Under the pieces are notes generated by a model. The model was not told the origin of the DNA and searched no databases. It was given only the letters and a program-made list of their open reading frames with translations. The position numbers and the translations under genes are program-made. Below are positions 6,125 to 54,321 of a stretch of DNA of 64,000 nt, piece by piece. The DNA lies in NCBI GenBank assembly GCA_031414535.1, contig JANNVQ010000014.1, forward strand, positions 160,001 to 224,000, in the 5' to 3' direction. Every line of letters begins with the position of its first letter. Within the stretch, counting starts at the first letter, position 1. Origin of the DNA: Gemmatimonas sp. Lineage in GTDB: Bacteria > Gemmatimonadota > Gemmatimonadetes > Gemmatimonadales > Gemmatimonadaceae.

Positions 6125-6168
6125 AGCCGAGAAGGTTAGCAGTTCAGGCCAAGGCGGCGAAAGTGCAG

Positions 6169-17145: not shown

Positions 17146-17291
17146 GGCAGCTGATTGAGTGGAAGGGCAAAACCTGTGTTCTGGAGCAAGTGACTTAGCC
17201 GTTGCCCTAGTCAGCCTTGCGGCAGATGCGTCCAACCCCCAAATCTAGACCGGGTGACAGCGCGCTGACAGCATTGGAAGGAGCGTATGGA

Positions 17292-33621: not shown

Positions 33622-33623
33622 CG

Positions 33624-35920: not shown

Positions 35921-37644
35921 CAGTTGCGCACGCGTGGGGCAAGACCCACCGAGCCCCAGACCCGCCCCAGCAACAAGCGCGCAATCATCACAAGATGACC
36001 GCCGATAATGCGAAGAATGCGGAGCTTCGAGCGACCAAGCATTCGCACTTCAAGCGTCGTCGGGAACTCAACAATGCGGTGCCCCGCCAAGTCGAGACGG
36101 CATAGCATCTCCGTCACACCCAAGAATCCCGTACGGTCGAGAGTCATCCCAGCCATTGCCTCGCGGCGGTATACACGGAAGCAACTGGTGTAGGTCGCGA
36201 GTTGGTTGCGCAGCACCAAGCGATACAGACGCGAAAGATTCCTGGAGAGCGCGAGCCGCCAAGTGGGGACGTTCCGCACCGCGCCACGCGGATGGTAGGG
36301 CGATGCCGTGACCAGCGCGACACCCGACGTCAGCAGCGGAATCATTTCGGCGAGGCGATGCGGATCGTAAGTACAGTCGCAGTCAATCGAGCAGATGACG
36401 TCCGTCCCCGCCTCCGCGATGCCCCGCAGAATGGCACCCGCTGGACCCTCATTCGCTCGCAGCCGTAGAATCCTGCAGTTGGCGTGCGTTCCAAAGAGCC
36501 TTTCGAGAGACGCCGCCGTGCCGTCCGTGCTACAATCATCCACGAAGATGAAGCGCAGATCGTAGGACCGACTGAGTTCAGCCTCCACGGAGCGCAGCGT
36601 GTTTGCCAGGTAGGGGAGAATCAACTCCTCGTTATAACAAGGCACCACCACCGTAACGGCCTGCTGCGTCGTAGGCTCTCGCGAACTCTCGCTCACAGCA
36701 GGAGCGGCCAACGCCGCCGCTAGAGAAGCATCGCTCGCACGCGGCGAGACGAGTTGTGCCGTTTCGCCGCGATCTAGCCCGAGATAATCACTGATCGAGG
36801 TGAATGGAACCTCGCGAAGGAACCACCCCAGCCGCTCGGGCATCATTTCGAGATTGCGATAATGACGCAAGCGCTGCGCTGCCCGCGCCGCGCTGATGCG
36901 CGGTTGGTCGGCATCCAACTCCCACGTGTGGAAGTAGAGCACTAGGGGAGCACTTTCACCCGCTAGCCACTGCCGTGCGCCGAGACGCACGAGCCACTGC
37001 GGAAGTTGCCTGAGGTAGTTGCCACCGAGCGGCACGTTCCGCCCCAACACACGCATGCTCGCGACCGGAAACTCCCAAATGCTCCCGTCGCCCACCCGAT
37101 GCCGATGCGAGACGCCGCGCCAATGATGCTCGGAGTTCTGACCAAGTCGCGGGGCGAAACTCGAGTCATAGCGGTAGCCCTGTGCCGTCAGGACGTCGAG
37201 CGCCCAAAGGTCGGCCTCTTGAAGCCACTCACCTGCCACCCGATACCCATGCACGCGTCGGCCGGAGGCTCGCTCAATGGCATCGCGTGCGCGCAGGAGA
37301 TCGTCCGCAAACTCCCCGGGCGTCATCCCGCCGATGTTGCGGTGGTAGTACCCCTTACTCGCCACCTCGTGGCCGCGGTCCGCTACCTCACGCACCAGCT
37401 CGGGCACCTGCTCCGCCACCCAGCCGAGCACGAAGAAGGTGGCGCGCACTTTGTGTTCGTCGAGCAGGTCAAGCGTCCGGCGAGTGCCATGCTCCACCCG
37501 CGACTCAAAGCGATACCACTCACCCCGCTGCACCAGTTGGTTGAAGGCCCCAACCTGGAAGTAGTCCTCCATCGCAACTGTGAGCAGGTGCTGCCCCGAG
37601 GTTATGCTCTGGGGAGCGCCTTGTGCATTCGGTGATTGAGGCAA
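35920..37644 (-). CDS. Fusion: XrtA-type polysaccharide deacetylase-like domain + GT2 glycosyltransferase
   Basis: N-terminal EDYF, ATFFVLGWVAE, YDSS, YFHTWELD; C-terminal VVVPCYNEE, VDDCSTDGT, IDCD. Confidence 0.85.
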   Translation of the reverse strand: MPQSPNAQGAPQSITSGQHLLTVAMEDYFQVGAFNQLVQRGEWYRFESRVEHGTRRTLDLLDEHKVRATFFVLGWVAEQVPELVREVADRGHEVASKGYYHRNIGGMTPGEFADDLLRARDAIERASGRRVHGYRVAGEWLQEADLWALDVLTAQGYRYDSSFAPRLGQNSEHHWRGVSHRHRVGDGSIWEFPVASMRVLGRNVPLGGNYLRQLPQWLVRLGARQWLAGESAPLVLYFHTWELDADQPRISAARAAQRLRHYRNLEMMPERLGWFLREVPFTSISDYLGLDRGETAQLVSPRASDASLAAALAAPAVSESSREPTTQQAVTVVVPCYNEELILPYLANTLRSVEAELSRSYDLRFIFVDDCSTDGTAASLERLFGTHANCRILRLRANEGPAGAILRGIAEAGTDVICSIDCDCTYDPHRLAEMIPLLTSGVALVTASPYHPRGAVRNVPTWRLALSRNLSRLYRLVLRNQLATYTSCFRVYRREAMAGMTLDRTGFLGVTEMLCRLDLAGHRIVEFPTTLEVRMLGRSKLRILRIIGGHLVMIARLLLGRVWGSVGLAPRVRN

Positions 37645-37995: not shown

Positions 37996-40900
37996 ATGCC
38001 GAACCGCCCCTTCTCCTGCTTCTTGATTGGCACCGAGTCTCTGCTGATTGGCTGCGCCGAAACCCTGCGCGAAACCGGCCAGCAGATTCTCGGCGTCATC
38101 ACAGACGAGCCATCAATCGTCGCATGGTGCAATGAGCGCGGCCTTCGCGTGATTCCCAGCGCGGATGACTACACGGCAATCTTAGCCGAGCAGCCCTTCG
38201 ACTTCCTGCTATCCATCACCAATCTCACAATCATCCCCGCCGGAGCACTGAAGTTGCCGCGGCGTGGGGCGGTGAACTTCCACGACGGCCCACTGCCCCG
38301 TTTTGGTGGCTTGTACGCACCGGCGTGGGCACTGATGGCGGGCGAAGCCGAGTACGGCATCACTTGGCACCAGTTGACGGGGGCCGTGGACGAGGGCGAC
38401 ATCGTCTTGCAGCGTCGCTTTGCAATCAGCGACGGCGAGACTTCGCTCAGCTTGAACACCAAGTGCTTTGAAGCGGGGCTCGAGTCGTTCCCGGAGCTGG
38501 TAGAAATTCTCTCCGGCACCGGCACACCGCCCCTGAAGCACGCGCTCGACAGGTCCACCTATCACGGTCTCTCGGATCGCCCGCGTGCGCTTGCCTCGCT
38601 CGACTGGTCGCGCCCTGCGGAGGAACTCGCCTCGCTGGTGCGGGCGCTCGACTTCGGCACGTATACCAATCCACTCGGCATCGCACGGATCCTCGGCAGC
38701 AAAGCCTGCGTGATCGTGGGCCGGCTTGAGGCTCTCGACAACGCAGTAGACTCCGCCCCCGGAACGGTACTCGCGGCAGAAGGCGACTCGCTCCGCGTTG
38801 CAGCAATGGGCGGCGTGTTGGTGCTCACGCGCTTGCTGAGCGCTGACGGCGCCCCGCTCTCGGCACGGGACGCACTCGGCGCACTGGGCGTAGCAGTTGG
38901 CAGCACGCTCCCATCGCCGGATGCTACGCTCGCGGATGCCTTGGATAGCTGGGCGGGAAAGTACGCTCGCTTCGAAGGCGCGTGGGCTTCGCGTCTCGCG
39001 GCGGTTGATCCCGTCGAGCTGCCCTTTGCCGAACGGGCGAGCGACCGGAGCGCACGCCGCGAGCGCGTACCGGTGGGCCGCACTGAGCAGCGCGAACGCG
39101 CGGCCGCGACATTCGCCGCGCTGACCGCTCGTTTGGCAGGCCGCGCGCGTTTTGACCTCGCGTTCCGCGAGTCAGGCAGTGTCGGCGCTGATGCCGCACT
39201 CGGGGCCGTGATTTCTGCGGCCGTTCCGCTGCGCATCTCGCTCCCAGAGCAGGGCTCGCTCGCCGATGCGCGTGCTTCGGTTGACGCATCGCTCGCGTGG
39301 GTACGGAAGCGGGGTGGCTTCTCGCGCGACATCGCCGCGCGCCGCCCGGCGCTCCGCGCCTCGCTTGGCCGCCCCTTCACCCTCGCCGTCGGCATTGAAC
39401 TCGTCGAGACCCTCAGCGATGCCGCGATGATTGGCAGCGACCTCACACTGGTTTTGGCACGCGACGGAAGCGCGGCATTCGACTTCGATGCCGCGGTGCT
39501 CGACCCCGCTCGCGTGAACGCGATGGTGGCGCAATGGCAGGCCCTGCTTGGTGCCACCGACGAGACGCGCTGGCTGGAAATCTCGCTGATGTCTGCCGAG
39601 GAGCGCACTCGTTTGCTCGAAACCTGGGGCACGGCACCCCGCGAGCTACGGCAGGGCCAAACAATTCACGAGATGATTGCCGCGCAGGCAGCGCGCACGC
39701 CCGAAGCCGTGGCGGTAGCGTTTGAAGACCGGCAGATGACGTATCGCGAACTCGATGTCGCGGCCAATCGGCTCGCGCACAAGTTGCGTAGCCTTGGCGC
39801 CGGCGCCGACACGCTAGTGGCGCTTTGCTGCGAACGCTCCTTGGATATGCTCGTCGGCATGCTCGGCGTCCTCAAGTCGGGCGCCGCGTATGTGCCTATC
39901 GACGCGGCCTACCCTGGCGATCGCATCGAATACATGCTCGAGGATTCGCAGGCCAAGATCCTCGTGACGCAAGAAGCGGTGCTCGGCGAACTGCCCGACA
40001 CGCGCGCCGACATCGTCTGTCTTGATCGCGATGCGGCGGCGCTCGCCAAGGAGCCCGAGACGCTCCCCGTCGAGGGCGCCACGAGCGCCAACCTCGCGTA
40101 CTGCATCTATACCTCGGGCTCCACCGGCCGCCCCAAGGGCGTGATGGTAGAGCACCGCAACGTTGTGAACTTCTTTGGCGCGATGGACGAGCGCCTTGGC
40201 ACGGAGCCCGGCGTGTGGCTTGCGGTCACGAGCCTGTCCTTTGACATCTCGGTGCTCGAGCTGCTGTGGTCGCTCACGCGCGGCTACAAGGTCGTGGTGT
40301 ACGCTGACGAGAATCGCGCCGCTGGTGCAACGGCCGGACTCGCCAACGCCCACAAGGCCGTCGGCTTCTCGCTCTTCTACTTCTCGGCGGACGAGAACGC
40401 CAACGCCGGTGATCGCTACCGCGTGTTGATGGAGGGTGCGCGCTTCGGCGACAAGCACGGGTTCACGGCAGTGTGGACACCCGAGCGCCACTTCCACGCA
40501 TTTGGCGGCTTGTATCCTAATCCGGCTGTGACTGGTGCGGCCGTCGCCGCCGTGACCTCGAGGATCGGCGTGCGTGCTGGCAGTTGCGTCCTGCCGCTGC
40601 ATCATCCGGTACGCGTCGTCGAAGAGTGGTCGGTGGTGGACAATCTCTCCAACGGCCGCGTCGGCATCTCCTTCGCCGCCGGTTGGCAGCCCAATGATTT
40701 TATCTTCCAACCGCAGAACTATGCGGACGCGAAGAACAAGACGATTGAGATGATCGAGACTGTACGCCAGCTGTGGCGTGGCGAGACGCTCTCGTTCCCG
40801 GGCCCGCGCGGCGACGTGCCGGTGCGCACGCTGCCACGCCCGGTGCAGAGTGAGTTGCCGATCTGGTATACCACGGCCGGCAATCCTGAGTCCTACGAGC

Positions 40901-42633
40901 TCGCGGGAACGCTGGGCGTGAACGTGCTCACGCATCTGCTCGGGCAGAGCGTGGACGAACTCGCCGACAAGATCACGCTCTACCGCAAGGCGTGGAAGGC
41001 CGCTGGCCACAAGGGCCAAGGGCAAATCTCCTTGATGTTACACACCTTCGTCGGCGACAGCGATGCCGAAGTGAAGGAAGTGGTGCGTGCACCGATGAAG
41101 GCCTACCTCGGCACCTCCATCTCGCTCATCAAGGGGTTCGCCTCGGCGTTCCCGACATTCAAGAAGAGCAAGGACGGCAAGGCTCCAGAACTCGATTTCG
41201 CCAGCCTCACGCCCGACGAGATGGACGCGCTGCTCGAGTACTCGTTCGAACGCTACTACGAGACCAGCGGACTGTTTGGCACCGTTGAGACCTGCGCCAA
41301 GATCGTGGACCGCCTGAAGGGCATCGGCGTGGACGACATCGCCGCCTTGATCGACTTCGGCGTGGACACGGATCTCGTGCTGCGCCATCTGCGGCAGTTG
41401 AACCGCCTGCGCGCGCAGACCAGCCGTCCGCGTGCGGCCTTTGCCGACTACTCCGTGGCGGCGCTCATCGCGCGGCACCGGGTGACGCACCTGCAGTGCA
41501 CGCCTTCAATGGCCGCGATGTTGGTTGCCGAGGACCGCAGCCGCGACGCGCTCCGCAACCTGCGCACGATGTGCGTGGGTGGCGAGGCATTCCCGCCCTC
41601 GCTTGCTGCCGATCTGCAGCGTCTCATTCCTGGCGACGTGCACAATATGTACGGCCCCACGGAGACGACGATTTGGTCGTCGATGTTCACGCTGGGCGGC
41701 AAGCTCGACGCCGTTCCGCTGGGGACGCCGCTGGCCAACAACGAACTCTACGTACTCGACGCCTTCCGCCAGCCAGTGCCGCCAGGCGTCGCCGGCGAGC
41801 TCTACATCGGCGGCGCGCAGGTGGTGCGCGGCTACTGGCGTCGTGCCGAACTGACGGCCGAGCGCTTTACGGCGCATCCGTTCAAGCGCGACCCAGCGGC
41901 GCGCGTCTATCGCACGGGCGATCTTGTGCGCTGGCGTGAGGACGGGCGTTTGGAATTCCTCGGGCGCGTGGACTTCCAAGTGAAGGTCCGCGGCTATCGC
42001 ATCGAACTCGGCGAGATCGAAGCCGCGCTGGCGTCGCATCCCGCCGTGCGCGAGGCCGTGGTGGTGGCGCGCAAGGACGCCGATGACGCCGACCCGCGAC
42101 TTGTTGGCTACGTGACGTGGAAGCGGGAGGCACCCGCCGACTTTGTCACGGTGCTGCGTGAGCATCTCCGCGTGGGACTGCCGGAGTTCATGATCCCCAG
42201 CCATCTGATTGCCCTGCGCGACCTCCCGCGCACACCCAATCAGAAGGTGGATCGCAAGGCGCTACCCTCGCCGGCACAGGTGGTGGAGGCGGCACCGCGG
42301 AACGAGCCGGCCATCGCACCGGCTGGCGAGTTGGAGACGGTCATCGCCGGCATTTGGCAGGAAGTGCTCAAGCTTCCCGCTGTCGGTGTCGCCGATAATT
42401 TCTTTGACCTCGGCGGCCACTCGCTGCTCGCGGTCCAGGTACACTCGCGGCTGAAGAAGGCCCTGCAGCGCGATCTCGCCATCACGGACCTCTTCCGCTT
42501 TCCCACGGTGCGTGGACTGTCGGAGTTCCTCGGCGGCGGTGGCCAAGACGACACGGCAGTAAAGAGCGGGATGGACCGCGCTGCGCAGCGGCGAGAGATG
42601 GCGGCGCGCCGGACGCGCCGCCCAACCAAGTAA
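37996..42633 (+). CDS. NRPS-like protein: formyltransferase - degenerate C remnant - A domain (Gly-type) with inserted luciferase-like monooxygenase - PCP
   Basis: NFHDGPLP..DEGDI (formyltransferase N/H/D); YTSGSTGRPKG, FDIS, YGPTE, YRTGD, NQKVDR; WTPERHFHAFGGLYPNP (LLM); FFDLGGHSL; ATG 37996. Confidence 0.9.
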   Translation: MPNRPFSCFLIGTESLLIGCAETLRETGQQILGVITDEPSIVAWCNERGLRVIPSADDYTAILAEQPFDFLLSITNLTIIPAGALKLPRRGAVNFHDGPLPRFGGLYAPAWALMAGEAEYGITWHQLTGAVDEGDIVLQRRFAISDGETSLSLNTKCFEAGLESFPELVEILSGTGTPPLKHALDRSTYHGLSDRPRALASLDWSRPAEELASLVRALDFGTYTNPLGIARILGSKACVIVGRLEALDNAVDSAPGTVLAAEGDSLRVAAMGGVLVLTRLLSADGAPLSARDALGALGVAVGSTLPSPDATLADALDSWAGKYARFEGAWASRLAAVDPVELPFAERASDRSARRERVPVGRTEQRERAAATFAALTARLAGRARFDLAFRESGSVGADAALGAVISAAVPLRISLPEQGSLADARASVDASLAWVRKRGGFSRDIAARRPALRASLGRPFTLAVGIELVETLSDAAMIGSDLTLVLARDGSAAFDFDAAVLDPARVNAMVAQWQALLGATDETRWLEISLMSAEERTRLLETWGTAPRELRQGQTIHEMIAAQAARTPEAVAVAFEDRQMTYRELDVAANRLAHKLRSLGAGADTLVALCCERSLDMLVGMLGVLKSGAAYVPIDAAYPGDRIEYMLEDSQAKILVTQEAVLGELPDTRADIVCLDRDAAALAKEPETLPVEGATSANLAYCIYTSGSTGRPKGVMVEHRNVVNFFGAMDERLGTEPGVWLAVTSLSFDISVLELLWSLTRGYKVVVYADENRAAGATAGLANAHKAVGFSLFYFSADENANAGDRYRVLMEGARFGDKHGFTAVWTPERHFHAFGGLYPNPAVTGAAVAAVTSRIGVRAGSCVLPLHHPVRVVEEWSVVDNLSNGRVGISFAAGWQPNDFIFQPQNYADAKNKTIEMIETVRQLWRGETLSFPGPRGDVPVRTLPRPVQSELPIWYTTAGNPESYELAGTLGVNVLTHLLGQSVDELADKITLYRKAWKAAGHKGQGQISLMLHTFVGDSDAEVKEVVRAPMKAYLGTSISLIKGFASAFPTFKKSKDGKAPELDFASLTPDEMDALLEYSFERYYETSGLFGTVETCAKIVDRLKGIGVDDIAALIDFGVDTDLVLRHLRQLNRLRAQTSRPRAAFADYSVAALIARHRVTHLQCTPSMAAMLVAEDRSRDALRNLRTMCVGGEAFPPSLAADLQRLIPGDVHNMYGPTETTIWSSMFTLGGKLDAVPLGTPLANNELYVLDAFRQPVPPGVAGELYIGGAQVVRGYWRRAELTAERFTAHPFKRDPAARVYRTGDLVRWREDGRLEFLGRVDFQVKVRGYRIELGEIEAALASHPAVREAVVVARKDADDADPRLVGYVTWKREAPADFVTVLREHLRVGLPEFMIPSHLIALRDLPRTPNQKVDRKALPSPAQVVEAAPRNEPAIAPAGELETVIAGIWQEVLKLPAVGVADNFFDLGGHSLLAVQVHSRLKKALQRDLAITDLFRFPTVRGLSEFLGGGGQDDTAVKSGMDRAAQRREMAARRTRRPTK

Positions 42634-42646
42634 GCGGATCTATTGA

Positions 42647-45600
42647 ATGTCTGAGCCACGGGAACTGCAGGGCAACGAAATCGCCATCGTCGGCATGGCG
42701 GGACGCTTTCCAGGCGCGCGCAGCTTGGCGGAGTTCTGGCGCAACCTCGAGGGCGGCGTCGAGTGCATCCGCATGCTGAGTGACGAAGAGCTGCGGGCAG
42801 CGGGAGTGTCGGAGCGTCAGCTCGCCGACCCCAACTACGTGCGCGCCGCGGCCATCCTCGACGACATGGAGAGCTGGGACGCCCCGTTCTGGGGATTCAC
42901 ACCGCTCGACGCGAGCATCATGGATCCGCAGCATCGCCTGTTCCTGGAATGCGCGTGGGAGGCATTCGAGGACGCCGGTCACGCGCCCGAACAGTTCGCT
43001 GGCGCGATTGGCGTATTCGCAGGCTGCGGCATGCAGGCCTACATGTCGTACAACCTGCTGCCCAACAAGAAGCTGATGGACAGCACGGGACTCTTTCTCG
43101 TGCGCCACACCGGCAACGAGAAGGACTTCCTCGCGACCCGCGTCTCGTACCAGATGAACCTGCGCGGCCCCAGCGTGAGCGTGCAGACGGCCTGCTCCAC
43201 CTCGCTGGTCGCGTTGCATCAAGCTTCGCAGAGCCTGCTCAGCGGCGAGTGCGACATGGCCATCGCCGGTGGCGTGACGATCGAGATGCCGCATCGCGTG
43301 GGCTACACGTACAAGGAGAACGAGATCCTCTCGCCGGACGGCCATTGCCGCGCTTTCGACGCCGAGTCCAAGGGCACGGTGTTCGGCTCTGGCGCGGGCG
43401 CCGTGGTGCTGCGTCGCCTTGAGGACGCGCTGCGTGATGGCGATCGCATTCACGCCGTGGTGCTCGGCTCGGCCATCAACAACGACGGTTCCAACAAGGT
43501 CGGATATCTCGCGCCGTCCGTGGATGGGCAGTCGGCGAGCATCGTCGAGGCGCTTGGCGTCGCGAACGTATCGCCCGACAGCATCAGCTACGTAGAGACG
43601 CACGGCACGGGCACGCCCGTCGGTGATCCCATCGAAGTCACGGCGCTCACCCAAGCCTTTCGTACGGGCACGGACCGTACGGGCTTCTGCGGCATCGGCT
43701 CGCTCAAGACCAGCATCGGGCACCTCGACACCGCCGCCGGTGTGGCGAGCCTCATCAAGACCGTGCTGGCCATGGCGCACCGCAAGCTGCCGCCGAGCCT
43801 CAACTTCACGGCGCCGAATCCCGCCATCGACTTTGCCGCGAGCCCGTTCTATGTGAACGCCTCGCTCAAGGACTGGAACGCTGAGCCGCGCCGTGCTGGC
43901 GTGAGCTCACTTGGCGTGGGTGGCACCAACGCGCATGTCATCGTCGAAGAGCCGCCAGTCGCCACGCCCTCGGGCCCTTCGCGTCCTTGGCAGCTCCTCA
44001 ACGTGTCCGCGCGCACGCGCACGGCACTGGATGTCGCGAGCGCCAATCTCGCGGACCATCTCGATGCCAATCGCGAGTTGCCGCTCGCCGATGCCGCGTT
44101 CACCCTGAGCACCGGACGTCAAGCGCTCAAGGAGCGGCGCATCGTGGCCGCCCGCACGCACGAGGAAGCACGCCGTTTGCTCGATGCGAACGAGAAGGAG
44201 CGCGTGTTCTCCGACACCGCGTCGGATCGCGCACAGGCGGCATTCCTGTTTGCCGGCGGTGGCGCGCAGTATGCGGGAATGGGCGCTGAGCTCTACGCGG
44301 CTGAGCCCGTCTACAAGCGGGCGGTGGATGAATGCCTGCAGCAGCTCGATGCGGACATCGCGCGCGAAGTACGAGCGTTGCTGCTGCCCGCCGCTGGAAC
44401 CGAAGCCGAAGGCTCGGCCCGACTCGAGCGCCCCTCGCTCGCCTTGCCGGCGCTCTTCAGCACGCAGTACGCGATGGCCAAGCTGCTGGAGTCCTGGGGC
44501 ATTGTCCCGGAATCGATGATCGGCCATTCGATGGGCGAGTACACGGCCGCGCATCTCGCGGGCGTCTTCTCGTTGAAGGACGCACTGCGTCTCGTGGCGC
44601 TCCGTGGTCGCCTGTTTGAAACGGTGCCTGCAGGTGCAATGCTCAGCGTACCGCTCTCCGAAGCTGAGTTGCGCCCCCTGCTCGGTACCGAACTCAGCAT
44701 CGCCGCCGTGAACGCGCCCCAGCTCTGCGTGGCGTCCGGACCTGTTGCAGCGATTGACGCGCTGGCCGCTGCGCTGGCGTCCAAGGAAATTGATGCCAAG
44801 AAGCTGCACATCGCCGTGGCTGCACACTCGGCGATGCTGGAGCCCATCCTGAAGGAGTTCGGCGACTTCTTCCGCACCATCAAGATGAGTGCGCCAAAGC
44901 GGCCGTTCGTCTCCAATGAGTCGGGCACTTGGATTACCAAGGAGCAGGCGACGGACCCAGAGTATTGGGTGCGCCACCTACGCAATACCGTACGCTTCGC
45001 CGACGGCGTCGCCGAACTCGTGCGCGATTCCGCGCGCGTGCTCGTGGAAGTCGGTCCGGGACGCGTACTCGCCACGCTGGCCCGTCAGCACCCCGACCGT
45101 CAGCAGTCGCAGTTAGTGATGACCACGATGCGTTCGTTCAGCGACGAAGGGGCGGACCTTCAGTTCGCACTCACCGCACTCGGTCGGCTCTGGGCGCGCG
45201 GCCTCAAGCCCGATTGGTCTGCCTACTGGAGCGATGAATCGCGTCGCCGGGTGTCGCTGCCGACCTATCCCTGGGAGCGTCAGCGGCACTGGATTGACGC
45301 ACCCGTCGCCGGCGCGAACGCCGAGCCTGACGAATCCCGCCGCACGCGCGTCGAGGATTGGCTGGCACGGCCCTCGTGGAAGCAGACACTTCCGCCATCG
45401 CCGATCACGGCCAAGGATGGGCGCGTGCTGGTGTTCGCCGACGAGACGGGCTTCAGCGATCTCTTGGCGGAACAGCTCCGCGCCGCCGGCCGTACGGTCC
45501 GCCGCGTCGTCGCGGGCAATGCGTATGGGCAGAATGCGGACGGCGGCTTCACCGTCCGTGCCGGCGCCATGGAAGACCACGGCAAGATGCTTGCGGCCCT

Positions 45601-48400
45601 CGTGGCCGAGGGCGGGACGCCTGAGCACGTGGTGTTCGCATGGGGCATCACCTCAAGCGGTGTCAGCGCTGAGCAAATCACGGAGCGTGGTTTCCACGGT
45701 CTCCTCGCCTTCGCTCAGGCACTCGCCAGCGAGGATCCCGACGCACACATCACGCTCGACCTGCTGACCAACGACTTGCAACGCGTCGGTGACAGCGACG
45801 GCCTCGAGCCGGCCAAGGCGCTCTTGCTTGGCCCCACTCGCGTGATGCCACGCGAGTACACGAATCTGCGCAGCCGTGCGATTGACCTGCGCTTGCCGCA
45901 GGCCGCGCCATCGCGCACCCGCCTTTCATCGCTTGTGGCCCGCGAAATTCTGAGCGAGCCCCTCGAGGAAACCCTAGCCTTCCGCGGTGGCGATCGCTTT
46001 GTGCAAACGCTCGAGCCCATGCCTGCAGTGGGTGAGTCGCCCGCGCTTCGCGAAGGCGGCGTGTATCTGATCACCGGTGGCTTGGGTGGCATCGGCTTCG
46101 CGCTGGCCGAGCATCTCGCCAAGTCGGTACGAGCGAAACTTGTTCTCGTAGGCCGCGGCGCAACCGGAGCGCGCAGCAAGAGCAAGATTGCCGCCCTCGA
46201 GGCCTTGGGCGCTCAGGTAGAAGTCGTGCAGGCGGACATCACGCGTGCCGATCAGGCTCGCTCTGCTGTCGAAGCTGCCGCTCGTCGCTTTGGCGCGCTC
46301 CACGGTGTCTTCCACGCAGCCGGCACGCTCGGCGATTCTCTTATTGCACTCAAGACCCAAGAAGACGCCGAGCGCGTGCTCGCACCGAAGGTGCGAGGCA
46401 CACTGAATCTCGATGCCGCGGTGGAAGGTCTCACGCTTGATGTATTCGTGTGCTTCTCGTCTATCTCGGCCGTGGCCGGACTCGCGGGCCAAGCGGACTA
46501 TGCGGCGGCGAACGCTTTTCTTGATGCGTTTGCTGCGGCGCGCAGCCTCCGCACGGGCCAGCGCACCGTGGCCATTGGATGGAGCGCCTGGAAGGACGTC
46601 GGTATGGCGGCAGCAATCGCCAGTGGCGCAGGAGCAGGCGGCGGAGTTGGCGAGCGCGTGCATCCGGTCCTTGGCACGCGCATCTGGGCCAGCGCCGAAG
46701 AGGAGCTCTTTGGCGGCGAGCTCGGCAACAACACGCACTGGATGCTCGAGGAGCATCGTCTGCGCGGCGGCCGTGCACTGATTCCCGGCACCGGCTATCT
46801 GGAAATCGCACGCGCGGCCGTCGAAGCACGCAGTGGGAGTGGCGCGGTGGAACTGCGCGACGTGGCCTTTATGTCGCCGTTCGTCGTCGAGGACAACACG
46901 CCGCGTGAGATGCGTGTGCACTTGGGCCACGGTGCCGGCAACACGCTGGTGATCGCCGGCCGCACCACCGCGGAGGACGGCAGCGTGCGTTGGCAGGAGC
47001 ATGTGACGGCGCAGGCGAGCTGGGTGGATGCGGAGGCACCGGCGCCACTGGACCTCGCCGGCATCCAATCGCGCTGCACCGCGCGCACGCAATCATTCAC
47101 GGGAAAGGAAGAGAATCCACACCTCGACTTTGGTCCGCGCTGGAAGAATCTGCGCGAGATCCGATACGGCAAGGACGAAGCCCTCGGCACGCTCGAGCTA
47201 CCGGCAGCGTTCCACGCCGACCTCGAGGAGTATCGGCTGCATCCTGCGATGATGGATATGGCCACGGCCTGCGCCGAATCACTCGTACCAGGCTTTGACG
47301 AAGCGAGCGACTTCTACGTGCCGCTTTCCTACACGCGGCTCACGATGTTCGCGCCGTTGCCCGCCCGCATCCACACGCACGTACGCTTGGCCCCGAGCGA
47401 CTTCGATCCTAAGGAGATCGTGGTGTTCGACGTCACGATCACCGACGATAGCGGTCGGGTGTTGGTGGACATCGGCGAGTTCATGATGACGCGCGTGACG
47501 GACACGGCACAGTTGCAGGATGTGGGCACGCGTACGTCTGCACGGCGCACGCATGTGCACTTGGAGCCGCCCGCGCAGGCCACTGAACAGCCAGCGCTCG
47601 TGCAAGGCCTCGAAGATGCCATTGGTACGGCCGAGGGCATGCGCGCCATTGAATGCATTCTCGCTGGACCCGATGTACCGCTGGTCTACGCCACGCCGAT
47701 GGACGTGCGGCATCTCTTGGTCGAACTGCGTAGCGCGATGATGCCTTCGCGGCCCGCGGCGACACCGGCCCTGCCGACGCCAACACTACCGCTGCACGAA
47801 ATTGAAGCGGTGCTCTCCACGCACGAGGTAGTCAGCCAGTGCGTGGTGCTGCAGCGCATGAATCGTCCGGGTGAATTGAAGCTCGTGGCCTACGTGGTCT
47901 TTGCGCCGGGCGAGAGCGCCACCGTCTCGGACCTGCGCCGCTTCCTCAAGTCGCGGTTGCCGGAGCACATGGTGCCGAGCACCTTCGTGGAGCAGGACGC
48001 CCTGCCGCTCAAGGTGGACGGCGCCGTGGACCGCGAGGCCCTGCCGGATCCCTTCGGCGCCGCCGACGACTACGTGGCGCCGCGCAGCGACACCGAGAAG
48101 CTCATCGCCGAGATCTGGAAGGAAGTGCTCGGCATCGGCCGCGTGAGTGTCTACGACAACTTCTTCGATGCCGGCGGCCACTCGTTGCTGGCCGTACGTG
48201 TGGTCACGCGCATTGACAAGAAACTTGGCGTGCGCCTCAACCAGGCCATCATGGTGCTGCAGACCCTCGAGCAGATTGCCGCGGAGTGCGACAAGCGCCG
48301 CGGCTCGCAGCCGGGATCGGCCACGCCCGACGCGCCGCCTGCACCAGAGAGCAGCGGTGGACTCGGCAAGAAGCTCTTCAACGCCCTGAGGGGTAAGTGA
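42647..48400 (+). CDS. Single-module type I PKS: KS-AT-KR (with nested DH)-vestigial A subdomain-PCP-type carrier
   Basis: TACSTS, HGTGT, KTSIGH (KS); GHSMG (AT); GGLGGIG, YAAAN (KR); HRLRGGRALIPG, HPAMMD (DH); FFDAGGHSL. Confidence 0.92.
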   Translation: MSEPRELQGNEIAIVGMAGRFPGARSLAEFWRNLEGGVECIRMLSDEELRAAGVSERQLADPNYVRAAAILDDMESWDAPFWGFTPLDASIMDPQHRLFLECAWEAFEDAGHAPEQFAGAIGVFAGCGMQAYMSYNLLPNKKLMDSTGLFLVRHTGNEKDFLATRVSYQMNLRGPSVSVQTACSTSLVALHQASQSLLSGECDMAIAGGVTIEMPHRVGYTYKENEILSPDGHCRAFDAESKGTVFGSGAGAVVLRRLEDALRDGDRIHAVVLGSAINNDGSNKVGYLAPSVDGQSASIVEALGVANVSPDSISYVETHGTGTPVGDPIEVTALTQAFRTGTDRTGFCGIGSLKTSIGHLDTAAGVASLIKTVLAMAHRKLPPSLNFTAPNPAIDFAASPFYVNASLKDWNAEPRRAGVSSLGVGGTNAHVIVEEPPVATPSGPSRPWQLLNVSARTRTALDVASANLADHLDANRELPLADAAFTLSTGRQALKERRIVAARTHEEARRLLDANEKERVFSDTASDRAQAAFLFAGGGAQYAGMGAELYAAEPVYKRAVDECLQQLDADIAREVRALLLPAAGTEAEGSARLERPSLALPALFSTQYAMAKLLESWGIVPESMIGHSMGEYTAAHLAGVFSLKDALRLVALRGRLFETVPAGAMLSVPLSEAELRPLLGTELSIAAVNAPQLCVASGPVAAIDALAAALASKEIDAKKLHIAVAAHSAMLEPILKEFGDFFRTIKMSAPKRPFVSNESGTWITKEQATDPEYWVRHLRNTVRFADGVAELVRDSARVLVEVGPGRVLATLARQHPDRQQSQLVMTTMRSFSDEGADLQFALTALGRLWARGLKPDWSAYWSDESRRRVSLPTYPWERQRHWIDAPVAGANAEPDESRRTRVEDWLARPSWKQTLPPSPITAKDGRVLVFADETGFSDLLAEQLRAAGRTVRRVVAGNAYGQNADGGFTVRAGAMEDHGKMLAALVAEGGTPEHVVFAWGITSSGVSAEQITERGFHGLLAFAQALASEDPDAHITLDLLTNDLQRVGDSDGLEPAKALLLGPTRVMPREYTNLRSRAIDLRLPQAAPSRTRLSSLVAREILSEPLEETLAFRGGDRFVQTLEPMPAVGESPALREGGVYLITGGLGGIGFALAEHLAKSVRAKLVLVGRGATGARSKSKIAALEALGAQVEVVQADITRADQARSAVEAAARRFGALHGVFHAAGTLGDSLIALKTQEDAERVLAPKVRGTLNLDAAVEGLTLDVFVCFSSISAVAGLAGQADYAAANAFLDAFAAARSLRTGQRTVAIGWSAWKDVGMAAAIASGAGAGGGVGERVHPVLGTRIWASAEEELFGGELGNNTHWMLEEHRLRGGRALIPGTGYLEIARAAVEARSGSGAVELRDVAFMSPFVVEDNTPREMRVHLGHGAGNTLVIAGRTTAEDGSVRWQEHVTAQASWVDAEAPAPLDLAGIQSRCTARTQSFTGKEENPHLDFGPRWKNLREIRYGKDEALGTLELPAAFHADLEEYRLHPAMMDMATACAESLVPGFDEASDFYVPLSYTRLTMFAPLPARIHTHVRLAPSDFDPKEIVVFDVTITDDSGRVLVDIGEFMMTRVTDTAQLQDVGTRTSARRTHVHLEPPAQATEQPALVQGLEDAIGTAEGMRAIECILAGPDVPLVYATPMDVRHLLVELRSAMMPSRPAATPALPTPTLPLHEIEAVLSTHEVVSQCVVLQRMNRPGELKLVAYVVFAPGESATVSDLRRFLKSRLPEHMVPSTFVEQDALPLKVDGAVDREALPDPFGAADDYVAPRSDTEKLIAEIWKEVLGIGRVSVYDNFFDAGGHSLLAVRVVTRIDKKLGVRLNQAIMVLQTLEQIAAECDKRRGSQPGSATPDAPPAPESSGGLGKKLFNALRGK

Positions 48401-49179
48401 ACCCGATTTTCTTCGGCCGCGCACCGCGGTCGCTGTTTGGTGTCTACCATCCACCCAAGGCCGCGCAGGCGCGCGCTACGGGCGTGGTGCTGTGCTATCC
48501 GTTTGGGCAGGAGTACATGCGCGCGCACCGCGCATACCGGCAGATGGCGCTGCTGCTGAGCAAGGCGGGCTTCCACGTGATGCGCTTTGACTACTACGGC
48601 ACGGGTGATTCCAGTGGCGATGCCGTGGATGCCTCGCTCACGCAGTGGGTCGAAGACGCACGCAGCGCAGCGGACGAGTTGAAGGAGACCGCCGAGATCA
48701 AGCGCGTCGCCTTCGTTGGCCTGCGCTTGGGTGCTGCCGTTGCTGCACTCGCCGCAGAGGGCCGCGACGACGTGGACCAAGTGGCCCTTTGGGATCCGGC
48801 AGTCACGGGTGCAGCGTATCTCGCCGAGATTACGGAGCAGCGCACGGATTCGGTGGGCAACTCGCGGCACTCCACCAGTGAAGGCGGTTTGGTGGGCGTG
48901 CTCGGATTTCCCATTACCGACGCGCTCCGAAAGGACCTCGGGGCGATGGATTTGCGTGAGGTCGGCGCGCCAAAGGGGAGCGGGCGACTTATCGTCGCCG
49001 CACATGAGCGTGAGGAGTACAGCGCGCTCGGCAACTTGCCCGTGGACGGCGTACGAGTGAAGTATCAGGTGGTGCCCAGCGAGGGCAATTGGAATGAAGT
49101 GGACGACTACGGCGGTGCCCTGATTCCGGTGTTCCTGATTCAGGCCATCGTTGCGCACCTTTCGCAGGAGATTCGATGA
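48397..49179 (+). CDS. Alpha/beta hydrolase-fold protein resembling exosortase-associated hydrolase 2
   Basis: RFDYYGTGDS, nucleophile elbow GLRLG, LWDP; GTG overlaps the PKS stop. Confidence 0.75.
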   Translation: MNPIFFGRAPRSLFGVYHPPKAAQARATGVVLCYPFGQEYMRAHRAYRQMALLLSKAGFHVMRFDYYGTGDSSGDAVDASLTQWVEDARSAADELKETAEIKRVAFVGLRLGAAVAALAAEGRDDVDQVALWDPAVTGAAYLAEITEQRTDSVGNSRHSTSEGGLVGVLGFPITDALRKDLGAMDLREVGAPKGSGRLIVAAHEREEYSALGNLPVDGVRVKYQVVPSEGNWNEVDDYGGALIPVFLIQAIVAHLSQEIR

Positions 49180-50126
49180 CCGCTGTTACGTATGGAAGAG
49201 AGAAGGCGCTGCGCTTTGGCTCGGGCTCGTCCCTCGTGGGCGTGCTCACGGAAGCGGCGGCCGGCAGCGCGGCGGCGGGCCGCCCCGGCGTCATCTTCCT
49301 GAACTCCGGCATCCTGCACCGCGTGGGCTCGTGCCGCCTCCATGTGCGTTTGGCTCGCGCCATGAGCGCGGCGGGTTTCCATGCGCTGCGCTTTGACTAT
49401 TCGGGCATCGGCGACAGCGACCAGCGTCGCGATTCGCTGCCCTTCGAGGAGAGCGCCGTGCTCGAGACGAAGGAGGCGATGGATTACCTCGCCAAAGCCA
49501 AGGGCGCGCAGAAGTTCATCCTCATTGGCCTTTGCTCCGGCGCCGACATGGCGCATGAGACCGCGCTGCGCGACGAGCGTGTGGCCGGGTTGATGCTCTT
49601 GGATGCCTGGGCGTATCGGAACCCTGGCTACTACATGCATCACTATGGCCCCAAGCTCTTCAACGTGAACGTGTGGCGGAACTCGATTGGCATTCGATTG
49701 AAGATGCTCCGCGGCAGCGACAACGACACGCGGGTCTGCATCCCGGGCTCCGAAGGTGTGGAATACGACGTGCCAAAGTACGTGCGTGTCTTTCCGCCCA
49801 AGGAGCGCATCGGTGCTGATCTGCGTGCCTTCGTCAAGCGTGGCGTCGAGATGCGCTTCGTGTGGACGGGTGGCCTCGAGGAGTACAACCACGAGGGTCA
49901 GTACGCGTCCACGTTCCGCGACGTCGGCCTGGGCAAACTGTTCGAAGAAGCGTACATGCCCGACGCCGATCATATCCTGACGGGCCTCGAGCATCAGGAC
50001 CAGGTCATTGATCGCACCCTGCGCTGGGCCACGCAGCGCTGGCCTGCGCAGAACGCTGGCAAGCCGTCGGCCGCTGCCGCAGCCGCAGTGCCATCGGCAG
50101 TCGAACGTCCAGCATCCGTCGCGTAG
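49176..50126 (+). CDS. Alpha/beta hydrolase-fold protein resembling exosortase-associated hydrolase 1
   Basis: HRVG, RFDYSGIGDS, elbow GLCSG, ADH near C-terminus. Confidence 0.75.
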   Translation: MTAVTYGREKALRFGSGSSLVGVLTEAAAGSAAAGRPGVIFLNSGILHRVGSCRLHVRLARAMSAAGFHALRFDYSGIGDSDQRRDSLPFEESAVLETKEAMDYLAKAKGAQKFILIGLCSGADMAHETALRDERVAGLMLLDAWAYRNPGYYMHHYGPKLFNVNVWRNSIGIRLKMLRGSDNDTRVCIPGSEGVEYDVPKYVRVFPPKERIGADLRAFVKRGVEMRFVWTGGLEEYNHEGQYASTFRDVGLGKLFEEAYMPDADHILTGLEHQDQVIDRTLRWATQRWPAQNAGKPSAAAAAAVPSAVERPASVA

Positions 50127-50128
50127 CG

Positions 50129-51397
50129 TTGCGTTCCGCCCGCACGTGGCTGGTTGCACTCTTTGCCGCCGTCGTGAGTGTCGCCTGCGGTGCCGAGGCG
50201 CCGCTCGCGCCATCTGAGCAAACAGCGGTAAGCGCGGCACCGGAGTTGACTTTGCTCAGATCGGCGCTCCGCTTGCGCGTGGACACGCTGGCGCGCGGCC
50301 TGAAGGTTCCGTGGGCCGTCGTCACGCTTCCCGACGGTCGCCTGCTCATCTCGGAGCGCGGCGGGCGGATTGTCGCGCTCGACACGTCCAGTGGACAACA
50401 GACCGAATGGGCGCGCCTCTCGGTGTACGCCGAAGATCCTGACTGGGGCCCCGAATCGGGTTTGCTCGGCCTCGCGCTCGCGCCGGACTTTGAGAAGTCC
50501 AAGCAGGTGTTCGCCATGGCCACGCGCTGGAAGAGCGCTGGCGATCGGGACGGCGCGCTGTTGCGTCGCGTGCAGCGCCGCGTCGCTGGACTGATGAAGC
50601 CCGAGTGGGGACTACCCTTCGAGAATCAGATCATCCGCCTCACCGAGCGCGATGGTATCGGGACGGATTCCGTGGTGATGGTGCGTAGACTTCCCGCCAA
50701 TCATTACCACGTCGGGGGCGGATTGGCCTTCGGTCCTGATGGCATGCTCTACGCGAGCGTCGGCGATGTCCTACATCCCAAGCTCGCGCTCAAGACGCGC
50801 TCCAGCGCAGGAAAGATCCTGCGGTATCGGCCCGATGGATCTGTGCCAGACGACAATCCGGACGCCGGCTCACCCGTGTGGGCCTCCGGACTTCGCAATA
50901 CGCAGGCCTTCGATTGGTTATCCGACGGCACCATGCTCGGCACAGACCACGGGCCCACGGGCATGACGCAGGAAGCGGGTCGCGCCGGCAATGATGAGTT
51001 AAACGTGCTCATACGCGCTGCCTCATACGGCTGGCCAGACATCGCGGGCCTTCAGTCAGCTGAACCGCATCGGCAACCCATCTGGCTCTGGCGCCAAGCA
51101 ATCGCTCCGGCCGGGATGTCCGTCTACCGCGGCTTTGATGCGCGCTGGGCGTCCAGTGTATTCGTGGCCGGCCTGCGAGGCGGCGTGGAGCGCATCGCGC
51201 TTGCTCGCGATGACTCAGGTGCCTGGAGAGTTGCTGCTCGCGAGTCGTTGGCCTTGCCGAGCCTTGGTAGAGTGCGCGGTGTGCGCTCGTTGGGCGACGG
51301 GTCACTACTCGTATTCACGAGTAATCGCGACGCCCGCGGGCAGGCCGGACCCAACGACGACTTACTCCTGCGCCTTGTGCCGATGGACCTCAATTGA
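50129..51397 (+). CDS. PQQ-dependent glucose/sorbosone dehydrogenase family lipoprotein
   Basis: SVA-C lipobox; PW...LPDG, GLLGLALAPDF, H.GG.LAFGPDGMLY, GKILR, GLRN. Confidence 0.82.
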   Translation: MRSARTWLVALFAAVVSVACGAEAPLAPSEQTAVSAAPELTLLRSALRLRVDTLARGLKVPWAVVTLPDGRLLISERGGRIVALDTSSGQQTEWARLSVYAEDPDWGPESGLLGLALAPDFEKSKQVFAMATRWKSAGDRDGALLRRVQRRVAGLMKPEWGLPFENQIIRLTERDGIGTDSVVMVRRLPANHYHVGGGLAFGPDGMLYASVGDVLHPKLALKTRSSAGKILRYRPDGSVPDDNPDAGSPVWASGLRNTQAFDWLSDGTMLGTDHGPTGMTQEAGRAGNDELNVLIRAASYGWPDIAGLQSAEPHRQPIWLWRQAIAPAGMSVYRGFDARWASSVFVAGLRGGVERIALARDDSGAWRVAARESLALPSLGRVRGVRSLGDGSLLVFTSNRDARGQAGPNDDLLLRLVPMDLN

Positions 51398-51981
51398 TGC
51401 GCGCATTACGGCAATTGGCGAAGTATGTGCTGCGCACGCCCCAGCGCCTCCTGCATCCGCACCGGCGTCAGGCGGCAGAAGCGATGCTTCGCGCGGCTCC
51501 CGTCAACTCGGTGCTCGTGCTCTGTTTGGGCAACATCTGCCGCAGTCCCTACGCCGCGGCCCAATTGCGAGAGGCCTTGGGTCCGGCTTGGACAGGGCGC
51601 GTGGATTCCGCAGGCTTCGTTGGCCCAGGGCGCCCGTCGCCATGGGAGGCCGTGAATGTGGCCACGGAGCACGGCGTGGATTTGAGTGCGCATCGCTCAC
51701 GTACGGTAGTCGCCGAGGACATCACGCAGTTCGACCTCATCATCGTCATGGAAGCGGGGCAACACACCCGACTAAACAAGACCCTCAGCGCGTGCGCGCC
51801 ACGCGTGTTGGTGCTCGGCGATCTCGACCCGGAGCCAATCTCGCAGCGCACGATTGTTGATCCCTTTGGTCGCGGGCTAGGCGAGTTCCATTCAAGCTAC
51901 GCGCGCATCGATCGCTGCACCGCGCGCCTCGCAGCAGCAATCAGCGCGCTTCGCAGTACCGACCCGCGTCCGGCGCGCTGA
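51397..51981 (+). CDS. Low-molecular-weight protein-tyrosine phosphatase (Wzb-like)
   Basis: CLGNICRS P-loop, DSAG, DPF. Confidence 0.88.
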   Translation: MRALRQLAKYVLRTPQRLLHPHRRQAAEAMLRAAPVNSVLVLCLGNICRSPYAAAQLREALGPAWTGRVDSAGFVGPGRPSPWEAVNVATEHGVDLSAHRSRTVVAEDITQFDLIIVMEAGQHTRLNKTLSACAPRVLVLGDLDPEPISQRTIVDPFGRGLGEFHSSYARIDRCTARLAAAISALRSTDPRPAR

Positions 51982-52993
51982 GCAACGACTCCGCGAGCAC
52001 CTTGGCGGCAAGCGCGTAGCCGCGCGCTGATGCGTGGCCGTCGCGCGGCAAAAGGTATAAGATCGTGTCCGGCAGCCCCGACGAACGCAGCGGCGTGTGC
52101 AGGTCCACGTAGTGGTCGCCGCGGTCGCGGACCATGTCCTCAAACCAGCCGAACGTCGTGCGATTGCGATCCGCCAATGCATTGTGCGAAGGATACGCCG
52201 TGACGACGAGCGGAACGCCGAACTCGGCGGCGCGGGTTGCGAGAGCAGCGTATTGGTCGGCGTAGCGGCTCCGAAGCGAGTCAATGTCCGGTAGTGCGTG
52301 CTGACTGAGTGGAGCGTCGGCGCGACGACGACGCTCCACCGCGCCCATCCGTGTACGCGCGTCACGCAACAGAGACCAGAGCGCAAGGCGGCGCAGTACG
52401 GGGTACACCATGTTCATCGGGAACGCCGACTTCAGCTCGCGCGACTTGGCGAGTTGCTCCCAAAAGGTAGGCCGTCGCAGGTCCACAACATCGTTATCGT
52501 GGTGTACGAGGATGATGGCGTCAGGCTTCAATGGCAGCGCCCGTTCGAGGATGTCGCGCTGCGCGTCTATTGTGGAGCCGGGCAAGGCGAGGTTGAGCAC
52601 GCGCGAGTTGCGGCAACCCATCGCGAACTCCGCCTCAATCCGCGCTGGCAAGGTGGCGCTGTCGTCTACGAACTGCCCCCACGCGAAGGAATCACCGAGC
52701 ACGATGATTCGCCGCTCTCCTTCCGGTTTCTGCAGCCCAATCTCGGGTCCGCGAAAGCCTTGCTGGTTGATGCTCACGGCAAAGTGCAGTCCGCTGCGGC
52801 TGCGATCCACCCTGCTTTCGGCAGGAAAATGAACGCCCGGAAACTCGTCGAATCGGTCTTGATCAAGCGTGACGGCTGTGGGAGGGCTCGCAAGTCCGAG
52901 AACGCGCACGGCGAGCTCTCCTAGAGCGAGCGCGAACACGCTACCAATCACCGCGCCCAGAAGCAGGCGAACGAATCGGGGCCACTTCTTCAC
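51941..52993 (-). CDS. Membrane-anchored SGNH/GDSL hydrolase-fold protein
   Basis: N-terminal TM, INQQGFRG, LGDSFAWG, ND, DGHA; GTG start 52993. Confidence 0.82.
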   Translation of the reverse strand: MKKWPRFVRLLLGAVIGSVFALALGELAVRVLGLASPPTAVTLDQDRFDEFPGVHFPAESRVDRSRSGLHFAVSINQQGFRGPEIGLQKPEGERRIIVLGDSFAWGQFVDDSATLPARIEAEFAMGCRNSRVLNLALPGSTIDAQRDILERALPLKPDAIILVHHDNDVVDLRRPTFWEQLAKSRELKSAFPMNMVYPVLRRLALWSLLRDARTRMGAVERRRRADAPLSQHALPDIDSLRSRYADQYAALATRAAEFGVPLVVTAYPSHNALADRNRTTFGWFEDMVRDRGDHYVDLHTPLRSSGLPDTILYLLPRDGHASARGYALAAKVLAESLLSAPDAGRYCEAR

Positions 52994-54171: not shown

Positions 54172-54321
54172 TATCGTACCGAATCCCTACTGGTACGCCT
54201 TCACCTCCACAGCTAAGTTCCTCTGTAGAAACAAGTTCGGGATTCGAAAGGGATTCCCCGCCTTCTGCGCGATTCTTGCGTAAGAGTGCTTGTTTCCTTC
54301 CCGCCCCCCGGAATCCCGCCA

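Follow-up and report, generated by a model that had tools for sequence, protein, structure and literature searches.

We analysed a 64,000-nucleotide (nt) stretch of the genome of a Gemmatimonas sp. (hereafter the window) and found in it four coupled genes, g1–g4, that belong to a widely spread family of paired nonribosomal peptide synthetase (NRPS) and polyketide synthase (PKS) genes but are equipped for chain release in an uncommon way. In place of the thioesterase (TE) that most relatives carry fused to the PKS, the window has two free-standing α/β-fold proteins, one with Arg (g3) and one with Cys (g4) at the nucleophile position, which makes it a minority type of this family. What is new here is the exchange of the TE for the Cys/Arg pair within an exopolysaccharide (EPS) locus that resembles those of exosortase A (XrtA) systems and lacks an exosortase. 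Both parent kinds are known and uncharacterised: a literature search in which subscription journals were not covered turned up no named product for the NRPS/PKS family and no tested function for the exosortase-A hydrolases. Our favoured reading, held tentatively and at a little under even confidence, is that g1 and g2 make a short, formylated, glycine-derived acyl group and that g4, acting with g3, offloads it, likely onto a sugar of the EPS encoded by the locus.

The source genome comprises 3.7 Mb in 58 contigs and is 98.4% complete, and g1 and g2 are its sole NRPS/PKS genes. The window lies on contig C14; domains were called with Pfam and NCBIfam profiles (Table 1).

A Cys/Arg pair stands in place of the fused thioesterase

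A scan of a representative-genome collection, with one genome per species and the formyltransferase (F) and condensation (C)-like region of g1 as query, confirmed at least 575 relatives in about nine phyla, placing g1/g2 among the most widely spread orphan NRPS–PKS cassettes. The locus statistics given here rest on the best 80 of these at least 575 relatives, which come from Gemmatimonadota, Acidobacteriota, Chloroflexota, Planctomycetota, Myxococcota, Burkholderiales, Rhodobacterales (30 loci), Gammaproteobacteria, Rhodothermota and others. Full-length relatives share 44–73% identity with g1, which is present at full length in 4 of the 24 other genomes of the genus. The g2 gene adjoins g1 in 60 of the 80 loci. 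Where at least 1.3 kb follows the g2 match, 50 of 53 g2 relatives end in a fused TE, which PF00975 confirmed in five of six Pfam-annotated loci. The three TE-less exceptions are two Gemmatimonadaceae loci with g3–g4 and one locus in which a C domain comes next. The g2 protein of the window ends after its carrier domain, so the lack of a TE that the first-pass annotation had read from the DNA was borne out, unusual as it is among these relatives. An apparent loss of the F domain from g1 in two loci (G176 and G199) was withdrawn, the available stretches ending too near the gene to tell.

Profile matches agree with the earlier description of g3 and g4 as two α/β hydrolases. The two are paralogues (BLASTP E = 7e-8), with R110 of g3 aligned with C120 of g4. 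The serine in the GLSMG motif of a solved S33-type hydrolase aligns with the same C120 (GLCSG in g4), and C120, D143 and H266 are kept in all 24 aligned homologues. At the corresponding elbow position of g3 (GLRLG), 44 of 46 representatives have Arg and the remaining two Gly, and the structural model (pLDDT 90.3) has the fold of an ordinary small lipase or esterase. Judged by these residues, g3 is probably a catalytically dead paralogue that serves as a non-catalytic partner of g4. The g3 family numbers 1,223 50%-cluster representatives at E ≤ 1e-30, and that of g4 numbers 714 proteins at E ≤ 1e-5. One homologue of g4, from Luteitalea, shares 63% identity with it.

Cys-nucleophile α/β proteins that act on carrier-bound thioesters include the obafluorin ObiF TE and the sulfazecin SulM TE, and polyhydroxyalkanoate (PHA) synthase is a G-x-C-x-G acyl-enzyme α/β protein. 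Unlike the ObiF and SulM TEs, g4 is free-standing and has a putatively dead paralogue as its neighbour. Among the fused TEs of the family, the g2 homologue of a Methylibium metagenome-assembled genome (MAG; locus L031) has a Cys nucleophile (GLCAG), the only one of five checked to do so.

Across ten loci, the g3–g4 pair directly follows a carrier-ending gene in nine, and EPS genes lie within ~10 kb in seven. Genomes G007 and G015 keep g1–g2, and G007 also keeps g3, g4 and the dehydrogenase gene that follows them in the window. In G002 and L023, g1 is convergent with a series consisting of ketosynthase–acyltransferase–ketoreductase–dehydratase–acyl carrier protein (KS-AT-KR-DH-ACP), condensation–adenylation–peptidyl carrier protein (C-A-PCP), g3 and g4. 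Five more Gemmatimonadota loci emerged from g3 matches; in four (L125, L126, L128 and L129) the pair stands immediately downstream of NRPS/PKS genes, and four (L125–L128) have EPS genes in the vicinity. In a MAG labelled Deltaproteobacteria, g1 lies ~25 kb from g2–g3–g4 on one contig, at 51–52% identity, and between them are homologues of the window's family 4 glycosyltransferase (GT4), SGNH protein, deacetylase, aminotransferase and Wzx (47%).

Kinship with the exosortase-A cassette

The best NCBIfam matches of g3 and g4 are the exosortase A system-associated hydrolases 2 and 1, respectively. By sequence, the pair appears to be kin of these hydrolases (hydr2_PEP and hydr1_PEP) and not a member of either family at the curated level; all 46 g3 relatives likewise fall below the curated cut-off, and the hydr2 cut-off was exceeded in none of 201 Gemmatimonadota genomes. 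In NCBIfam names, the XrtA cassette consists of an acyl-CoA ligase (TIGR03098), a decarboxylase (TIGR03099), an ACP, hydrolase 2 (TIGR03101) and hydrolase 1 (TIGR03100). The window resembles it in the succession of a carrier, an Arg-elbow and then a Cys-elbow α/β protein inside an EPS locus, and that locus also holds further XrtA-type accessory genes, for an amidotransferase, FemAB, a DUF3473 deacetylase and stp glycosyltransferases.

Among 151 Burkholderiales genomes searched, 30 contained hydr1_PEP above its cut-off. Three of three canonical exosortase-A loci from these genomes repeat the succession seen in the window, here an ACP-like open reading frame (ORF), hydr2 and hydr1, with ligase_PEP_1 and the decarboxylase alongside; at the aligned positions the hydr2-like protein has Arg and hydr1 has Cys. 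The one annotated in full (L140) has an 83-aa ACP-like ORF with a DSM serine motif, hydr2 at 318 bits and hydr1 at 350 bits, and its neighbours are ligase_PEP_1 (808 bits) and a pyridoxal phosphate (PLP) decarboxylase (634 bits). Unlike the XrtA cassette, the window has an NRPS–PKS in place of the ligase, decarboxylase and free ACP, both of its hydrolase scores are sub-cut-off, and its genome has no exosortase: PF09721 found no match there (98.4% completeness) or in G002, G005, G007 and G015. Although g3 has lost the canonical catalytic Ser, its Cys33 and Pro35 are shared without exception by 46 of 46 relatives; Cys33 does not seem to be conserved in the canonical hydr2_PEP proteins.

The three Agarilytica loci each have an exosortase gene immediately upstream of g1, accompanied by GNVR- and kinase-type genes; L044, the one annotated by Pfam, encodes a fusion of the exosortase with a DUF3485 domain, and a TPR gene comes next. 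A true hydr1_PEP was not found in the genomes of L044 and L055, both of which have an exosortase match near g1. As the exosortase systems act on proteins, the kinship of g3 and g4 with exosortase-A hydrolases could point to a protein or a membrane lipid as the acceptor, by analogy with exosortase-tied sorting and lipidation systems. We consider this very unlikely, given that no exosortase was found in the genome itself or in four cassette-bearing relatives and that the conserved neighbours are sugar-modifying enzymes.

A predicted formylating loading module and a TE-less PKS

Profiles matched in g1 are Formyl_trans_N/C, a two-piece AMP-binding domain, AMP-binding_C, PP-binding and the luciferase-like monooxygenase (LLM) family TIGR04020. 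The first-pass annotation had given the order as formyltransferase, adenylation (A) domain, LLM and PCP. Its domains stand, but the order required correction: rather than following the A domain, the LLM interrupts it between motifs A4 (FDIS) and A5 (NMYGPTE), and a C-like domain is present in addition. The monooxygenase is of the MupA/Atu3671 type, scoring 497 bits against a cut-off of 244. In the F domain, N94, H96 and D132 are invariant in five of five relatives' sequences. Its closest solved sequence is Met-tRNA formyltransferase (82 bits), followed by ArnA (68 bits), and the F domain of LgrA reaches only 21–22 bits.

Residues 290–565 of g1 (276 aa) had no match among Pfam families and, by BLAST, none among C domains, and g1 contains no HHxxxDG motif. 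With the AlphaFold model of this region as query (pLDDT 91.7; 57-sequence alignment), the top Foldseek matches in the PDB were all NRPS C domains (E down to 5e-11; TM 0.5–0.66 over the query). The model suggests a truncated, probably non-catalytic C-like domain. The A-domain specificity code, read by eye from the motif positions, is DILQCGMIWK. It is identical at nine of ten positions to DILQLGMIWK, the code that a 2025 survey gives for all four monooxygenase-bearing Gly domains in its sample (PMC12283262), and the predicted substrate on this basis is glycine.

In having an N-terminal F domain ahead of A-PCP, g1 may be comparable to LgrA of linear gramicidin synthetase (F-A-PCP), although its match to the F domain of LgrA is marginal; unlike LgrA, g1 has an F domain nearer to Met-tRNA formyltransferase and ArnA, and a C-like domain separates F from A. 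SolF and MtaG/MelG (C-A-MOX-A-T-TE, where MOX is the monooxygenase and T a thiolation domain) likewise have the LLM between motifs A4 and A5 in a Gly-type A domain, with nine of ten code residues shared. Those modules, which are extension or terminal ones, are fed by a working C domain, whereas the loading module g1 has an F domain and a truncated, HHxxxDG-less C-like domain.

For g2, Pfam found every domain of the KS-AT-KR/DH-carrier series that had been assigned at first pass and, in addition, the relic of an A subdomain ahead of the carrier. Motifs are intact in KS (Cys and both His motifs), AT (GHSMG), KR and DH; together with the nine-of-ten Gly code and the five-of-five F residues, they fit the reading of g1–g2 as an assembly line. 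The carrier is PCP-type (GGHS). Because the C-terminal stretch of g2 resembles the A subdomain and PCP of a free-standing C-A-PCP protein in G002 (47.6% identity; 42% to the same region of g1), the carrier appears to be of NRPS origin, and because the A10 lysine is replaced, the A piece reads as a relic. One or two complete C-A-PCP modules lie between the PKS and g3–g4 in three Gemmatimonadota loci (L099, on G002:C127, L128 and L129), and the relic looks like the remnant of a C-A-PCP module deleted in frame.

In g2, KR precedes DH, an order atypical for modular PKSs. Iterative use and a longer chain are therefore possible, which counts against a short product. Used iteratively, g2 would extend the formyl-glycine starter into a longer chain, unsaturated or hydroxylated, yielding a lipid-like anchor or a glycolipid rather than a C4 unit. 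Such a role would suit the departure of KS-AT-KR-DH, with no enoylreductase (ER), from modular order, the presence of a single PKS module in a genome with no other NRPS/PKS, and the GT2 and flippase genes that neighbour the Rhodobacterales relatives. We nevertheless regard it as improbable: the closest solved sequences to KR and DH come from modular and trans-AT PKSs and from mycocerosic acid synthase (MAS), not from polyunsaturated fatty acid (PUFA) or enediyne synthases, and nothing in the sequence demonstrates iteration. A PUFA- or enediyne-like kinship of g2 was considered and found unsupported in the solved-structure sequence search.

Polysaccharide genes accompany the cassette

A capsule-linked PKS is known in WcbR. 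We scored EPS context around the 80 loci with a tblastn panel of polysaccharide-type proteins (E ≤ 1e-6), which gives lower bounds. Within the 10-kb flanks, 55 of 80 loci have at least one polysaccharide-type gene and 40 have at least two, compared with 18 and 1, respectively, of 295 control tiles (non-overlapping, 11.3 kb, from the window's own genome with the window region excluded). At least one such gene is found in 30 of 30 Rhodobacterales loci, 4 of 4 in Gammaproteobacteria, 5 of 5 in Burkholderiales, 5 of 8 in Planctomycetota, 4 of 6 in Myxococcota/delta, 3 of 5 in Gemmatimonadota and 1 of 2 in Rhodothermota, and in most lineages the g1/g2 cassette sits among polysaccharide genes. The enrichment supports a glycan link without proving one, and its weight is lessened by the dominance of 30 related Rhodobacterales loci (related genomes being non-independent), by a control drawn from one genome, by a panel based on tblastn rather than hidden Markov models (HMMs) and by the shortness of many loci.

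The 30 Rhodobacterales loci contain full-length tblastn homologues of g1 (44–47% identity) and g2 (43–47%). Their layout is GT2, Wzx-like, PKS-TE, GT2, NRPS and phosphopantetheinyl transferase (PPTase), and it matches a set of four NRPS/PKS cluster genes conserved in Roseobacters, which PMC4337385 (citing Martens et al.) reports from 28 of 57 genomes and whose product is described there as not yet characterized. The window shares with these loci the NRPS order F, C-like, A (split by the monooxygenase) and PCP, as judged by full-length tblastn homology, the PKS order KS-AT-KR-DH-carrier, and polysaccharide-type neighbours. Unlike the Roseobacter cluster, it has no fused TE, no GT2 between PKS and NRPS and no adjacent PPTase; g1 comes before g2, the Cys/Arg pair follows, and a deacetylase–GT2 fusion is divergent upstream.

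Proposed mechanism and competing readings

We propose that glycine is loaded on g1 and that the F domain would formylate it once it is carrier-bound. The monooxygenase would likely hydroxylate the α-carbon of glycine, by analogy with MtaG/MelG and SolF. In MtaG/MelG, glycine α-hydroxylation brings about cleavage to an amide and an α-keto acid (PMC11411415); in SolF the hydroxyglycine is kept (PMC10204066). Either fate could apply to g1, giving a 4-formamido-4-hydroxy unit or, should formamide be lost, an oxo unit. On g2, one non-iterative malonate extension would be reduced and dehydrated, and g4 would then remove the acyl chain from the PCP through an acyl-S-Cys intermediate, with g3 as the non-catalytic partner in a putative g3–g4 heterodimer. 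The acceptor, which is the weakest and least certain link in this mechanism, would be a sugar of the locus polymer, perhaps at an amine exposed by one of the conserved deacetylases nearby. A sugar is favoured because the Cys/Arg pair occurs where carriers meet XrtA-type EPS genes and because EPS genes accompany the cassette across phyla. Support for transfer to a sugar is contextual only, namely the EPS enrichment, the Deltaproteobacteria-labelled locus and the kinship of g3 and g4 with the exosortase-A pair.

Alternatively, the product may be a free, diffusible metabolite (formamido- or oxo-butenoic acid or a glycosylated derivative) that g4 merely hydrolyses from the carrier, with the EPS setting reflecting co-regulation with biofilm functions rather than a covalent link. 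The relatives speak for this most directly: besides the prevalence of fused TEs, four of the five TEs checked have a Ser nucleophile, which suits simple hydrolytic release. The Roseobacter version, as laid out in PMC4337385, is a compact four-gene set of NRPS, PKS, GT and PPTase, and Chloroflexota versions lie within larger NRPS clusters. Moreover, a link is reported between exosortase loci and free N-acyl amino acids that other enzymes produce (PMC4897644, citing Craig et al. 2011). Yet in lineages that carry the cassette amid XrtA-type EPS genes the TE gives way to the Cys/Arg pair, plain hydrolysis would be an odd use for a Cys nucleophile paired with a dead partner, and no dedicated small-molecule transporter was seen in the operon. 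Overall, we think a free metabolite somewhat unlikely, though a strong rival to the favoured reading.

Several further observations weigh against offloading onto an EPS sugar. The tblastn panel found no polysaccharide genes near g1–g2 in Chloroflexota (0 of 12 loci) or Acidobacteriota (0 of 3), and 6 of the 12 Chloroflexota loci lie beside further NRPS modules. The NCBIfam scores on which the hydrolase kinship draws are well under the cut-offs, at 105.4 bits against 202.75 for g3 (TIGR03101) and 89.1 bits against 168.45 for g4 (TIGR03100), and the hydr1_PEP/hydr2_PEP family is itself uncharacterised. For the chemistry proposed for g1, no flavin reductase was seen in the operon, and the nearest Sfp-type PPTase gene lies ~48 kb upstream of g1 (C14:149186-149485).

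The favoured reading, with a sugar as acceptor, also has a bolder form, which we consider unlikely. In this form, the Cys/Arg pair would be a dedicated carrier-to-glycan acyltransferase, the first known to graft NRPS/PKS acyl groups onto EPS, and the F-A(monooxygenase)-PCP/PKS line would supply a reactive formamido-hydroxy-enoyl (or, if formamide is lost, oxo-enoyl) group that decorates or cross-links the polymer. Both the g1/g2 cassette and the XrtA cassette, two uncharacterised systems, are addressed by one testable hypothesis, that a cysteine acyl-enzyme delivers carrier-bound acyl groups to surface polymers. If true, both the type of polysaccharide substituent and the off-loading chemistry would be new; if a free metabolite is made instead, the pair would still provide a release mechanism for a very common cryptic cluster.

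Operon boundaries and the surrounding EPS region

The four genes are coupled as the first-pass annotation had described, with a gap of 13 nt between g1 and g2, a GTGA overlap of g2 and g3 at 48397-48400 and an ATGA overlap of g3 and g4 at 49176-49179. Because a glucose/sorbosone dehydrogenase (GSDH) gene starts 2 nt past the end of g4 and is overlapped by 4 nt by a low-molecular-weight phosphotyrosine phosphatase (LMW-PTP) gene, the transcription unit probably comprises six genes and extends through both to 51981. GSDH is directly 3′ of g4 in G007 as well, and an LMW-PTP gene also comes after g4 in L128. The divergent block upstream of g1 recurs beside g1 in G007 and G015, in the same order and orientation and at 59–67% identity.

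Pfam and NCBIfam annotation agrees that polysaccharide genes flank the four genes on both sides. The earlier statement that there is no exporter holds within 37996-50126 but not for the window, which has a Wzx-like and a Wzy_C gene. A Wzz/kinase-like gene, a priming transferase gene and the Sfp-type PPTase gene precede the window start by 1–11 kb, so that the EPS region spans roughly 85 kb.

Table 1. Features of the window, in window positions.
Feature	Position	Strand	Assignment and basis
g1	37996-42633	+	NRPS loading module, 1545 aa: F, truncated C-like, A (predicted Gly) split by monooxygenase, PCP
g1 formyltransferase domain (~residues 1-300)	37996-38895	+	Formyl_trans_N/C
g1 truncated condensation-like domain (residues 290-565)	38863-39690	+	AlphaFold model and Foldseek
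g1 A domain, N-terminal part to motif A4	39679-40356	+	AMP-binding profile positions 2-256
g1 luciferase-like FMN monooxygenase inside A domain	40366-41412	+	TIGR04020, PF00296
g1 A domain, C-terminal part (A5-A10)	41452-42246	+	Pfam/NCBIfam, translation
g1 PCP	42343-42531	+	PP-binding; GGHS motif
g2	42647-48400	+	Type I PKS, 1917 aa
g2 KS	42674-43807	+	Pfam
g2 AT	44243-45175	+	Pfam
g2 KR	46058-46597	+	Pfam
g2 DH	46661-47512	+	Pfam
g2 A-subdomain, putative relic	47798-48013	+	Pfam AMP-binding_C
g2 PCP	48101-48283	+	Pfam PP-binding
g3	48397-49179	+	α/β-fold protein, Arg at nucleophile position (GLRLG), hydr2_PEP-like
g4	49176-50126	+	α/β hydrolase, Cys nucleophile (GLCSG), hydr1_PEP-like
GSDH	50129-51397	+	Pyrroloquinoline quinone (PQQ)-type glucose/sorbosone dehydrogenase, lipoprotein-like signal; PF07995, N-terminus read
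LMW-PTP	51394-51981	+	Low-molecular-weight phosphotyrosine phosphatase, Wzb-like; Pfam/NCBIfam
Divergent block	30080-37644	-	Deacetylase-DUF3473-GT2 fusion, FAD amine oxidase family, deacetylase, AsnB-type amidotransferase, NDP-sugar dehydrogenase; Pfam/NCBIfam
Wzx-like gene	9001-10458		
Wzy_C gene	12673-13995		
MBOAT	301-1716		DltB-like
Acetoacetate-CoA-ligase-family enzyme	1982-3946		TIGR01217, 576 bits
Nonulosonate-type genes	3921-7287	-	NeuC-like epimerase, NeuB-like nonulosonate synthase, cytidylyltransferase
SGNH/GDSL-family proteins (four)	11570-12676, 15991-17235, 51941-53026, 52990-54099	-	
Carbamoyltransferase and SxtJ-family protein	54286-56555	+	NodU/CmcH-type carbamoyltransferase, then small SxtJ-family protein
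GT2 and PMT_2	57700-60478	+	ArnC/PgfS-type polyprenyl-phosphate-sugar synthase GT2, then PMT_2 (ArnT-like GT-C)
FkbH-domain protein	61458-63984	-	TIGR01686, 315 bits; to window edge

Other genes of the region carry features of their own. The DltB-like MBOAT gene stands next to that of the acetoacetate-CoA-ligase-family enzyme, and together they would make up a second acylation system of the carrier type within the EPS region; the FkbH-domain protein, beside a GNAT-like ORF, may represent a third source of acyl groups that depends on a carrier. NeuC- and NeuB-like genes occur with one for a cytidylyltransferase; a sialic-acid-type sugar is probably part of the polymer. The ArnC/PgfS-type GT2 and PMT_2, together with the F domain and the deacetylases, recall the logic of the Arn pathway. 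Homologues of the four SGNH/GDSL-family proteins recur in related EPS loci, and the NodU/CmcH-type carbamoyltransferase, at 72–77% identity in G007, G015 and G176, is more conserved than its neighbours.

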